From: Alphaproteobacteria bacterium
GTDB lineage: Bacteria > Pseudomonadota > Alphaproteobacteria > UBA7879 > UBA5542
Length of the DNA stretch: 64,000 nt
Assembly (NCBI GenBank): GCA_037146715.1
Contig: JBAWWO010000002.1
Span: 7,377 to 71,376, forward strand
Direction of reading: 5' to 3'
Part shown: positions 46,168-48,114 of the stretch, piece after piece
Position numbering within the stretch: position 1 is the first letter of the stretch
Layout of the letters: every line of letters starts with the position of its first letter
Program-made: the position numbers and the translations under genes
Notes under the pieces: generated by a model
Told to the model about the DNA's origin: nothing
Seen by the model: only the letters and a program-made list of their open reading frames with translations
The model's database searches: none

Positions 46168-46902
46168 TCACATTCTGGGCAGAGCAATTGAGGCCCAATA
46201 CTTAATCGTATTATGCAATTGCTCTTTGAAGTCAGCAGACTCAAAAGATTTGTGTATATATCCACTGGCAAAATTCTTATACGCTTCAATCATGACGTGC
46301 TTGGAAAGATTATTTGAAAGTATAATGACTGGAATCTCTTTTAGGAGTCGATCCCTTTTTATTTCTCTCAACACATGCAGGCCATCCACTTGAGGCAAGT
46401 CTAACTCCATTAAAATAACGTCAGGTCGTGGAAACAACTTTGTCTTGTTTTTTAGAAGATCTAAAACTTGTTGTCCTGCGTGCAGACAATAGATTTCTAC
46501 CTCAATCGGACATTCCTTTAAGATTTCCCGAATTTGAAGTTCATCAAGGGGATCATTGTCTACAATTAATACTTGAAGAGGTCGCGATCGTTTCAAAATA
46601 ATACGATCTGATTCCTCGGACAACTCTTCTTCAGATAAGACTCGTTCGTAACCCTCATAAAAGAAATTGACTGATACCCCCAAAGTTTTTGCTAGCACAT
46701 AGATCCGTTCAGCTGACAGCTGAACAAGTCCCTGTTCATACTTTTGCACTTGTTGGTGAGATAATATCAATTTCTTACCCAAATCAACAAGGGTCCAGTT
46801 CAGTTTTCTTCTGCGATCTCGAATGCGACTGCCTACAAAAGAATAAAAGGCAGACCTCTCCGTTTCATTGGGCTCTTGTTCTCTCAGTTCTTTTGCAGTC
46901 AT
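46168..46902 (-). CDS. Hybrid regulator: N-terminal XRE-type HTH plus C-terminal response-regulator receiver (REC) domain
   Basis: HTH motif WTLVDLGKKLILSHQQVQKYEQG. REC motifs are present: LIVDNDP acidic pocket, phospho-acceptor Asp in ILMELDLPQVDG, and PVIILS…K. The domain order is inverted relative to canonical response regulators. Confidence 0.6.
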   Translation of the reverse strand: MTAKELREQEPNETERSAFYSFVGSRIRDRRRKLNWTLVDLGKKLILSHQQVQKYEQGLVQLSAERIYVLAKTLGVSVNFFYEGYERVLSEEELSEESDRIILKRSRPLQVLIVDNDPLDELQIREILKECPIEVEIYCLHAGQQVLDLLKNKTKLFPRPDVILMELDLPQVDGLHVLREIKRDRLLKEIPVIILSNNLSKHVMIEAYKNFASGYIHKSFESADFKEQLHNTIKYWASIALPRM

Positions 46903-46962
46903 GTTTTATACCTCTTTAATATCTAAGTAAAAAAAAATAAGAACAATTGCAACTCAAATTTA

Positions 46963-47286
46963 CTAAGTACTCATCTTCTTTTTCTCAAAAGGGATTTTTT
47001 GTACAATCGGTTTTATATAGCTCACAACACAAACATCTAAATGGGTTAAATACTCCAAAAGATCTGACTCAAAATAATGTTGGGAAATCATATGGTGAAT
47101 TCTAGAAGACAACTTATATGCAGCACCCGATCCTTCCCCTCCTTCTTTATGGCTTAAAAGCATTTTATAAAAATCCCGCTCAAGAGACTCTATAGCACTC
47201 TCTTGTCGTTTTCTAGAAAAGTACATAAGTACTTTGTTGGAATTTATTGCCATATATGTCACCTTTATTATTTCATGTGCGACCAA
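46963..47286 (-). CDS. Hypothetical protein of 107 aa, helical
   Basis: ORF in the AT-rich islet between the XRE-REC regulator and the HATPase-like gene. No motif recognised. Confidence 0.3.
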   Translation of the reverse strand: MVAHEIIKVTYMAINSNKVLMYFSRKRQESAIESLERDFYKMLLSHKEGGEGSGAAYKLSSRIHHMISQHYFESDLLEYLTHLDVCVVSYIKPIVQKIPFEKKKMST

Positions 47287-47466
47287 TCTATAGAAAATTC
47301 CGCATGATAATAAAGTTGCAAAAACTTCTTATTTTCTCCCGATCCAGTGTTTTTAATGATTTTTTAGATATTTTTTCATAAAAATGGAAAAATTTATATT
47401 TTTTCAATTTTTATAAATCTTAATTTTTTTGTAAACAGGAGTGTCTAAATAAAAGGTGATGGCAAA

Positions 47467-48114
47467 ATGAAAGAAATGTTAGGATTTTTAATCAAAGAAA
47501 ATAATAATTTAGAGATATTTATAAAAAAATCTTTCACGGATCTGTACAAGCACCTACGGCAATCTAATTATCTTGTGCAGAAAAAAATTGCTCCTCTTGA
47601 GGCTCCTGATTTTAATAGAATATCTTTTTTAGAAAAGAAACTTAAGAACCTAATAGCTTCCTATTATAATTTACAGAAATATCCTTCTACTCTGAAGTCT
47701 GTAGAAAGAGTAATGCAGATCACTAATGATGTTGTCGCTTGCAAGGCTCCCAGTACTAGTTTTTTCTATAGCTATGAAACCCCTGCTATTACAACTGAAA
47801 AAGTTGACTTCCGAATAGTATGGGTTTTGGCAGAACTTATAGCGTTTTTTTATGGAAACTCTGATAAAGTTGTTCATATTTTTATTCAGACAAATCAAGA
47901 GGGGTTGGTTTTTAAAGTACACGGCAAAAATTCAAAAATTTCTAAGAAAAAATTGAACAATATCTTTCATGCTTTTGGAGAAAATAAAGACCTGTTTTGT
48001 TGCAAAAAAATAGTTGATCATATGCATTGGGATATTTGGGTTGAATCTGAAAAAGGTCAGGGGGCTAGCTTTTATCTGGCCGTACAGAAAGAAGAAAAGC
48101 CTGAAACTCTATGA
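47467..48114 (+). CDS. Degenerate histidine-kinase-like ATPase (HATPase_c-like) with no recognisable DHp/His domain
   Basis: The C-terminal half resembles the HK catalytic-domain N-box, G-box and lid (VWVLAELIAFFYGNS…NIFHAFGE…DIWVESEKGQGASFYLAV). There is no H-box and no TM segment. Confidence 0.4.
   Translation: MKEMLGFLIKENNNLEIFIKKSFTDLYKHLRQSNYLVQKKIAPLEAPDFNRISFLEKKLKNLIASYYNLQKYPSTLKSVERVMQITNDVVACKAPSTSFFYSYETPAITTEKVDFRIVWVLAELIAFFYGNSDKVVHIFIQTNQEGLVFKVHGKNSKISKKKLNNIFHAFGENKDLFCCKKIVDHMHWDIWVESEKGQGASFYLAVQKEEKPETL

Follow-up and report, generated by a model that had tools for sequence, protein, structure and literature searches.

Receiver domains that lack the phospho-accepting aspartate (pseudo-receivers) are common, and their control is largely unknown (PMC12632262). 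In these aspartate-less receivers (ALRs), glutamate is the most frequent replacement, followed by asparagine and serine, and the second acidic residue of the active site is usually lost as well (PMC4395418, PMC12632262). On the kinase side, DivL binds a response regulator through a dead kinase core (PMC4211667, PMC5361649). Here we describe a cluster of three genes in the window, a 64,000-nucleotide (nt) stretch of contig JBAWWO010000002.1 from an uncultured, Holosporales-like alphaproteobacterium (all coordinates refer to the forward strand of the window), in which an aspartate-less receiver and a dead kinase core appear to lie next to each other. The genes encode a regulator that combines an XRE-type helix-turn-helix (HTH) with a receiver (REC) domain, referred to below as the XRE-REC regulator, a small helical protein, and a 215-amino-acid (aa) protein related to histidine kinases. 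Very probably the cluster is phosphorylation-dead and descends from a real two-component system that occurs mainly in Holosporales.

Pfam places an HTH_3 domain at the N terminus of the 244-aa regulator (residues 27 to 80, E = 7.6e-11) and a Response_reg domain behind it (residues 111 to 228, E = 1.6e-17), which bears out the reversed domain order that had been noticed in an initial reading of the bare letters (the sequence-only reading); NCBIfam added nothing specific for any of the three proteins. The HTH, with the motif SHQQVQKYEQG, is the most conserved region of the family and is nearly invariant. The same reading had credited the receiver with an intact phospho-acceptor aspartate, a claim that three independent alignments contradict. 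BLASTP alignment with Escherichia coli CheY places Glu166 opposite Asp57, Asp115-Asn116 opposite Asp12-Asp13, Ser196 opposite Thr87, and Lys218 opposite Lys109. In the structure-match alignments, the acceptor aspartate of Rcp1 and RcpB (Asp68 in Rcp1; ILLDLNLP) pairs with the glutamate of ILMELDLP, and the family profile alignment likewise puts Glu166 in the acceptor column. The aspartate taken for the acceptor in the sequence-only reading is Asp168, which sits two residues beyond the acceptor position and is not the ancestral acceptor, because the canonical members of the family have asparagine or another residue there. The acidic pair is Asp115-Asn116 in the window and Glu-Asp in the family consensus, the second metal ligand being gone, and Ser196 and Lys218 are retained. 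Thus, of the two conserved residues whose absence the sequence-only reading had singled out as telling against it, the aspartate is replaced by Glu166 and the lysine is present as Lys218. The best PDB matches of the receiver are RcpB, Rcp1, and RcpA (E = 1e-16 to 2e-14), with the C-terminal extension and its W..LP motif included. A significant Response_reg match combined with a non-aspartate acceptor is what defines an ALR (PMC12632262, PMC4395418); by this definition the receiver is an aspartate-less pseudo-receiver, and it is predicted not to be canonically phosphorylatable.

The 215-aa protein gives a borderline pass against Pfam HATPase_c (27.2 bits, with a cutoff of 26.4; residues 132 to 208), so that its proposed HATPase-like character survives the hidden Markov model search on which it had been staked. 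A word-indexed search of 5.8 billion proteins returned only the protein itself, and HMMER, run exhaustively against 1.84 billion representatives, gave 21 weak matches (E = 4e-8 to 1e-3). All ten of the matches that were checked in Pfam carry HATPase_c and most also carry HisKA, and several span nearly the whole query. In pairwise alignments, SFTDLYKHLR stands opposite AYHDLQEPLR and ASHDLQAPIR, placing Thr24 at the phospho-accepting histidine; kinases encoded next to XRE-REC genes read CSHDLKEPLR at the same place. An hhalign comparison with a profile of nine such kinases gave a probability of 97.4% (E = 1.5e-11) over 211 columns, running end to end over the dimerization and histidine phosphotransfer (DHp) domain and the catalytic and ATP-binding (CA) domain, and the protein is 22 to 33% identical to the intact kinases. 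In an AlphaFold2 (AF2) model (pLDDT 74, pTM 0.62), helices at residues 2 to 40 and 46 to 70 are followed by an alpha/beta domain, and the top PDB matches of this model in Foldseek are the DHp+CA cytoplasmic parts of HK853, ZraS, and YycG (E of about 1e-8 to 1e-9). The protein is therefore not merely a HATPase fold, as had first been supposed, since it also has a DHp-like hairpin with Thr24 at the histidine position.

Alignment with the XRE-REC-adjacent kinases reveals what has happened to the catalytic motifs. The N-box QNLIxNAIKF has become AELIA--FFY, the asparagine being lost together with a 3-aa deletion; G1 has changed from DNGIGI to GKNSKI, with loss of the G1 aspartate; and the G2 box has gone together with the ATP lid in an in-frame deletion of about 10 residues. 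Still present are the CKKIV helix, the IWVESxxGxGxxF strand, and the G3/beta core, which reads IWVESEKGQGASFY. The open reading frame (ORF) starts exactly at DHp helix 1, with only 180 bp of AT-rich noncoding DNA upstream, and encodes no sensor or transmembrane domain. Together with the Pfam match, these motif alignments confirm that the HATPase-like protein is without the phosphorylatable histidine, G1 and G2, and any sensor or transmembrane domain. His29, in KHLR, might have served as a displaced phospho-acceptor, a possibility that we rejected: this residue aligns with the H-box proline of HDLKEPLR, five residues past the histidine, and it could not be charged because the CA domain has no ATP-binding site. 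The 215-aa protein is, by prediction, a complete DHp+CA histidine kinase core that is sensorless and catalytically dead, either a pseudokinase or a late-stage relic, and it should be able neither to bind ATP nor to carry a phosphoryl group.

Proteins with the XRE-REC architecture make up a family that comprises about 30 protein-database clusters and, among GTDB genomes, 28 full-length species loci. Holosporales or Holosporaceae stands in the titles of many species-locus records, and one record is the complete genome of Candidatus Caedibacter acanthamoebae; the remaining records are mostly titled just Alphaproteobacteria or Rickettsiales, and a few bear unrelated phylum names. Using local profiles within ±6 kb of each regulator gene, we found an intact HisKA-HATPase kinase (H-box CSHDLKEPLR) directly adjacent in 13 of the 28 species loci and no more than 3 kb away in a further 3. 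These intact kinases are 370 to 768 aa long and carry PAS, GAF, or HAMP sensors; no phytochrome module was detected in them. The presence of intact kinases adjoining XRE-REC genes in other genomes argues that the regulator and its adjacent kinase form a genuine cognate two-component system and that the window ORF descends from the kinase of this system. The receiver quintet (Glu, Asp, Asp, Thr/Ser, Lys) is complete in all 16 kinase-bearing loci, and among the 16 loci with no kinase or with only a relic the active site is degenerate in 9 and intact in 7 (Fisher p = 8e-4, or 1e-4 on adding the Asn-bearing loci L085 and L086, in a test that ignores phylogeny). The acceptor column holds glutamate in the window, in its closest relative (locus L001), and in P0003 and P0026, asparagine in P0006 to P0009, serine in P0010/L007, and aspartate elsewhere. 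In a neighbor-joining tree, the window groups with L001 and P0003, all of which have glutamate, and the sister group of this clade has aspartate, asparagine, or serine at the acceptor and no adjacent kinase.

Other observations were made on the family. In the sister clade, six loci (L002, L004, L005, L007, L085, and L086, at about 4700 to 6700 in each) present an OmpA-like gene, then the small-protein gene (in 4 of the 6), then the XRE-REC gene; no kinase was found within 6 kb in any of them, and a cell-envelope link of the cluster is possible. In L017 (27-551), L018 (1109-2077), L020 (2509-3534), and L029 (1164-2204), short (174 to 346 aa) diverged kinases are encoded directly upstream of XRE-REC. 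The receivers at these four loci are fully intact, the H-box histidine is kept where a DHp domain is present, and the G1, F, and G2 motifs of the kinases are eroded (for example, DNGEKL, and no clear GxGxG), so these kinases may represent an independent route of kinase simplification. Five full-length loci (L009, L011, L014, L016, and L020) come from metagenome-assembled genomes (MAGs) titled Verrucomicrobiales, Pelagibacter, Patescibacteria, Chlorobiaceae, and Clostridia; since the titles of many other full-length loci read Holosporales or Holosporaceae, the five contigs look mis-binned or mislabelled.

The small gene lies directly upstream of the XRE-REC gene on the same strand. Its start is probably internal to the 107-aa maximal ORF, since GenBank gives 96 aa and ENA 87 aa; the conserved core begins at MYFSR (47226). 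The ORF has no match in Pfam or NCBIfam, and a word-indexed homology search returned only the protein itself. Local profile searches found homologues directly beside the XRE-REC gene in L001, L005, L007, L085, and L086, the family occurring at seven XRE-REC loci, and L008 contains a weaker homologue next to its intact kinase, the kinase and small genes there being divergent as in the window. The seven-member alignment has the conserved core YFSR..QE...E..F....LS..I....YYF..DL..YL, in which an arginine, a glutamine, a phenylalanine, and an aspartate are invariant and no histidine is. The sequence-only reading had suggested that the 107-aa protein might be a stand-alone partner of the DHp or histidine phosphotransfer (HPt) type, to be checked with profiles. 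A profile of the family gave no match below E = 0.05 among PDB profiles and likewise none in Pfam, and hhalign of the family against the kinase DHp+CA profile gave a probability of 0.2%. A single-sequence AF2 model of the protein is helical and of low confidence (pLDDT 64), and its Foldseek matches, to helical bundles, all have E above 1, none being significant. Taken with the missing invariant histidine, these results speak against a stand-alone DHp or HPt. The 215-aa protein, moreover, already possesses a DHp, so that the small protein is not required for this purpose. We also examined whether it could be a fragment of the sensor or DHp region of an ancestral kinase, and rejected this, as it has no similarity to any adjacent kinase. 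The small protein, which persists even at loci that have lost the kinase and have glutamate, asparagine, or serine as the acceptor, is predicted to be a conserved accessory of the XRE-REC regulator, not a recognizable DHp or HPt.

Table 1. Features of the three-gene cluster and its borders
Feature	Position in window	Strand	Description and basis
cspA	45903-46106		CSD domain; one flank of the three-gene islet
GC-rich hairpin and T-run	46131..46162		Between convergent cspA and XRE-REC genes; 14-pair stem, terminator-like
XRE-REC regulator	46168-46902	-	244 aa; ORF list; GenBank MEI8320612.1 ("response regulator")
Receiver with C-terminal YW..LP extension	46171..46572	-	Residues 111-244; active site Asp115, Asn116, Glu166, Ser196, Lys218
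Codon GAG (Glu166)	46405..46407	-	Phospho-acceptor position; read from sequence and alignments
XRE-type helix-turn-helix	46663..46824	-	Residues 27-80; Pfam HTH_3 and family alignment
Small helical protein	46963-47286	-	Maximal ORF, 107 aa; GenBank 96 aa, 46963..47253, MEI8320613.1 ("hypothetical protein")
Divergent intergenic region	47254..47466		Very AT-rich; between small gene (-) and kinase-like gene (+)
Imperfect inverted repeat	47375-47417		18-nt arms, 89% complementary, 7-nt spacer: TTCATAAAAATGGAAAAA / TTTTTCAATTTTTATAAA
Kinase-like protein	47467-48114	+	215 aa; ORF list; GenBank MEI8320614.1 ("ATP-binding protein")
DHp-like helical hairpin	47467..47676	+	Residues 1-70; alignments and AF2 model
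Codon ACG (Thr24)	47536-47538	+	Phospho-His position; alignments
Degenerate CA (HATPase_c) domain	47701..48090	+	Residues 79-208; Pfam and kinase alignment
mltA	48109-49335		MltA and 3D domains; other flank of the islet; Tim44 gene beyond

The ORF list and the GC profile confirm that the three ORFs lie between cspA and mltA in an AT-rich stretch. At 33.9% GC (window mean 43.3%, SD 3.3), the islet ranks lowest among the 2-kb windows, just 0.4% of which are equally low, and the AT-rich intergenic run is likewise genuine, with 22.8% GC over the spacer at 47287-47466. Among the 52 window ORFs of at least 150 aa (43.7 ± 4.4% GC), the 215-aa ORF is the lowest, at 32.1%. The 3' ends of this ORF and the convergent mltA gene overlap by 6 nt (48109-48114), so that there is no space for a terminator between them. 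In L001, the regulator is 59% identical to that of the window and the gene order, Tim44-MltA-kinase relic-small protein-XRE-REC, is the same, which supports the proposal that the three genes belong together. The kinase counterpart in L001 is a truncated relic: a 91-aa ORF in which an N-box (LLKNAIRF) and G1 (DRGTGM) are visible, without DHp and with an in-frame stop, preceded by AT-rich DNA with many stops. Identity of the window proteins to those of L001 is highest for MltA (67%) and Tim44 (65%), lower for the regulator (59%) and the small protein (45%), and lowest for the kinase relic (27%). GC across the window locus drops broadly in parallel with this conservation (MltA 45%, regulator 39%, Tim44 38%, small gene 34%, kinase gene 32%), and the homologous L001 stretch also has the lowest GC of its contig (28% vs 38%). 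The second acidic position, Asn116 in the window, is serine in L001.

Some features of the noncoding DNA deserve mention. The hairpin between the convergent cspA and XRE-REC genes is likely to be a terminator and could serve both of them. An Rfam scan of 45000-49000 gave one match only, to L20_leader at 46062-46172, which overlaps the hairpin, is below threshold (26 bits against a gathering score of 58.7), and is probably a spurious match arising by chance. The divergent intergenic region presumably holds the promoters of both transcription units; sigma-70-like promoter matches within it were not above chance. The inverted repeat within this region may be a candidate operator, and it could be a chance occurrence in DNA of 23% GC. 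Alignment of the window and L001 intergenic regions gave a single short conserved block, which is uninterpretable.

Elsewhere in the window, a 651-aa ORF next to lptC/lptA (40314-42269, minus strand) has no Pfam family at E <= 1e-3 and, with 35.3% GC and 26% GC at third codon positions, has the second-lowest GC among the long window ORFs; it could encode a lineage-specific or host-interaction protein. A 293-aa ORF (51434-52315, minus strand) between a malic enzyme gene and fabG/fabD-like genes also has no Pfam family.

These findings suggest the following history. The ancestor would have been a cytoplasmic PAS-HisKA-HATPase kinase acting with a DNA-binding regulator of the XRE(N)-REC(C) type, a system that in one subclade would also have included the small helical accessory protein. 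In the window lineage, the kinase gene would have lost its entire sensor region and all catalytic motifs, and the receiver would have turned aspartate-less, acquiring Glu166 at its acceptor position and Asn116 in its metal pocket. The regulator may now be a phosphorylation-independent transcription factor that dimerizes, probably via an Rcp-like alpha4-beta5-alpha5 face and the YW..LP tail; Glu166 would mimic the phosphorylated state, favoring the active conformation, and the XRE HTH would bind DNA. Its activity would be set by expression level and protein partners, not by phosphotransfer, and the cotranscribed small protein would be the most likely partner. The 215-aa ORF would most likely specify a noncatalytic pseudokinase that still docks on the receiver, the role we propose for it by analogy with DivL. 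Relaxed constraint is the best reading of the low GC: rapid evolution under weak constraint and AT-biased mutation would account for it without foreign DNA, because GC parallels conservation, the L001 locus is likewise the AT-richest of its contig, and tRNA genes and direct repeats are absent from the surroundings. Taken as a whole, from a phosphorylation-dead descendant through a phosphorylation-independent regulator to a 215-aa ORF kept as a pseudokinase, we consider this account reasonably probable. Its least certain step is the retention of the 215-aa ORF for a DivL-like binding role on the receiver, toward which the balance of the evidence tips only just.

Several points weigh against this account. 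Exchange of aspartate for glutamate does not always activate a receiver (PMC4395418), and a search upstream of XRE-REC at 32 loci for a palindromic operator gave no conserved one, the sole matches being A/T runs that did not outperform shuffled controls. The AF2 models are of moderate confidence for the 215-aa protein and of low confidence for the small protein, and with E = 5e-6 to 6e-4 against a small database, the small-protein match in L008 is a weak one. The association of kinase loss with receiver decay takes no account of shared ancestry, and since the contigs were searched to ±6 kb and some of them are short, distant kinases would be missed. Finally, as the relic in L001 has been cut short and a kinase gene is missing altogether from more distant relatives, the 215-aa ORF may simply be disappearing.

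This last point is the core of the most serious alternative, namely, that the 215-aa ORF is a functionless late-stage pseudogene, open by luck or through recent inactivation, and that function is confined to the regulator and the small protein. Much of the evidence described above fits this idea: the sensor region and every catalytic motif are lost, the ORF has the lowest GC of its size class, its identity to the L001 counterpart is 27% when that of neighboring genes is 59 to 67%, what remains of that counterpart is a truncated piece of 91 aa interrupted by an in-frame stop, and the sister clade has no kinase at all. What speaks for retention is the state of the frame itself. It runs intact for 215 codons through 32% GC DNA despite very high divergence, the deletions at the N-box and the lid are in frame, and the DHp hairpin and CA beta core are still recognizable and fold in the AF2 model. 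In a crude neutral-drift simulation on real kinase coding sequences, AT-biased and limited to point substitutions, about 4.8 stops had accumulated by the time amino acid identity had dropped to 70%, with only 1.5% of runs stop-free; that the window frame is open at 22 to 33% identity therefore argues for selection on it. We consider a functionless pseudogene possible but somewhat unlikely, and continue to favor, by a little, a pseudokinase that has been retained.

The alternatives that would restore phosphotransfer, or explain the islet by its arrival from elsewhere, fare considerably worse. The sequence-only reading had envisaged a split, atypical phosphorelay, in which the HATPase-like protein would act with the 107-aa DHp/HPt to phosphorylate an intact regulator aspartate. 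The clustering of the genes, the detection of HATPase_c and Response_reg, and the presence of Asp168 near the acceptor position make such a scheme understandable, but it is contradicted on sequence grounds by Glu166 and Asn116 in the receiver, by the loss of the histidine, the N-box asparagine, the G1 aspartate, and the G2/ATP lid from a protein that has its own DHp with Thr24 for the histidine, and by a small protein with neither an invariant histidine nor any DHp or HPt similarity; a working phosphorelay is hardly credible. A related idea makes the adjacent ORF irrelevant and has the regulator still phosphorylated, on Asp168 or through a re-registered beta3 loop, by an unlinked kinase. Conservation of Asp168 in the window, L001, and P0003 (ELDLP) would suit it, as would the retention of Ser196 and Lys218 and the fact that the analysis covered 64 kb of the genome. 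The position two residues past the acceptor is nevertheless asparagine or another residue in all canonical members, the second acidic metal ligand is lost in both the window and L001, sister lineages have asparagine or serine at the acceptor, as is typical of ALRs (PMC4395418), and no other kinase was found within the 64-kb window, all of which makes phosphorylation by a distant kinase quite improbable. A recent horizontal acquisition of the islet, which the sequence-only reading had deduced from base composition, would account for the lowest-GC 2-kb stretch of the window and for a kinase-like ORF that is an orphan among the 5.8 billion and 1.84 billion proteins searched. This origin is very improbable, however, since the regulator family is common to many Holosporales and unclassified alphaproteobacterial MAGs, the order from Tim44 to the regulator is kept in L001 at 59% regulator identity in DNA that is AT-richest there too, GC declines in step with protein conservation across the locus, and no mobility signature was found: there are no tRNA genes within 30 kb of the islet and no integrase or flanking direct repeats at its borders.

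A further, more speculative possibility is that the dead kinase core, the small protein, and the aspartate-less regulator make up a working phosphorylation-free partner-switch to which a two-component system gave rise in an intracellular bacterium. DNA binding would then be gated by the pseudokinase or by the small protein, whichever of them binds the Glu-locked receiver stoichiometrically. We regard this as doubtful; were it true, the clade, with Asp, Glu, Asn, and Ser acceptors and with intact, dead, truncated, and absent kinases, would be a natural series of rewiring. Whatever the outcome for the partner-switch, the XRE-first, receiver-second proteins constitute an undescribed, mainly Holosporales family of response regulators with reversed domain order, accompanied by a conserved small protein, a putative partner for which no fold match was found. 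Its graded decay beside intact systems, in which the kinase goes from dead but open to truncated to absent and the acceptor is Asp, Glu, Asn, or Ser, offers a comparative system for the escape of a transcription factor from phosphorylation control during genome reduction and for the persistence of dead kinases as binding partners. The annotations "response regulator" and "ATP-binding protein" are misleading in this context, because neither protein is predicted to be capable of the chemistry that they imply.

We found no description in the literature of an XRE-N-terminal/REC-C-terminal regulator, of the small partner, of a decay series of this kind, or of such Holosporales two-component systems. 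DigR of Myxococcus xanthus likewise combines a receiver with an XRE-type HTH output (PMC3509222). We considered it as a precedent for the reversed order and set it aside, as its HTH is C terminal, in the usual order; moreover, DigR is phosphorylated by the kinase SgmT (PMC3509222), whereas the window regulator has its HTH at the N terminus and a receiver predicted not to be phosphorylatable. The receiver itself is closest to the phytochrome regulators Rcp1, RcpA, and RcpB (PDB 1i3c, 1jlk, 1k68, and 1k66), which are its best matches among solved structures, C-terminal W..LP extension included, and the cognate kinase family of the Rcp proteins shares the SHDLxEPLR H-box seen in the PAS/GAF-type kinases from the exhaustive search. 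Rcp proteins, however, are single-domain, phosphorylatable, and paired with light sensors, whereas the window receiver lies behind an XRE HTH and has glutamate at the acceptor.

The 215-aa protein resembles the histidine pseudokinases DivL (PMC4211667, PMC5361649) and PsmA (PMC12963549) in having DHp and CA domains without a phosphorylatable histidine. DivL and PsmA differ from it in that they are large, keep their sensor/PAS domains, and have roles shown experimentally; the 215-aa protein is a bare core that has also lost the N, G1, and G2 motifs, and its partner receiver would not be phosphorylatable. The regulator, for its part, shares the main characteristics of the ALR or pseudo-receiver regulators, such as Chlamydia ChxR (Glu) and Streptococcus RitR (Asn), in which the receiver fold is kept and the phospho-accepting aspartate is replaced (PMC4395418, PMC12632262). 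The replacements typical of ALRs, Glu, Asn, and Ser, are the three states found in the window's clade, and, as in ALRs, loss of the second acidic residue has spared the first, the Ser/Thr, and the Lys, a putative DNA-binding output domain is attached, and there is no working partner kinase. With glutamate at the acceptor, the regulator comes nearest to ChxR in its logic (PMC4395418). It departs from ChxR and RitR in that its output domain is an XRE HTH lying N terminal to the receiver and its receiver is of the Rcp type, with the YW..LP tail, and in that the dead partner kinase is still recognizable next door and intact systems exist in sister lineages.

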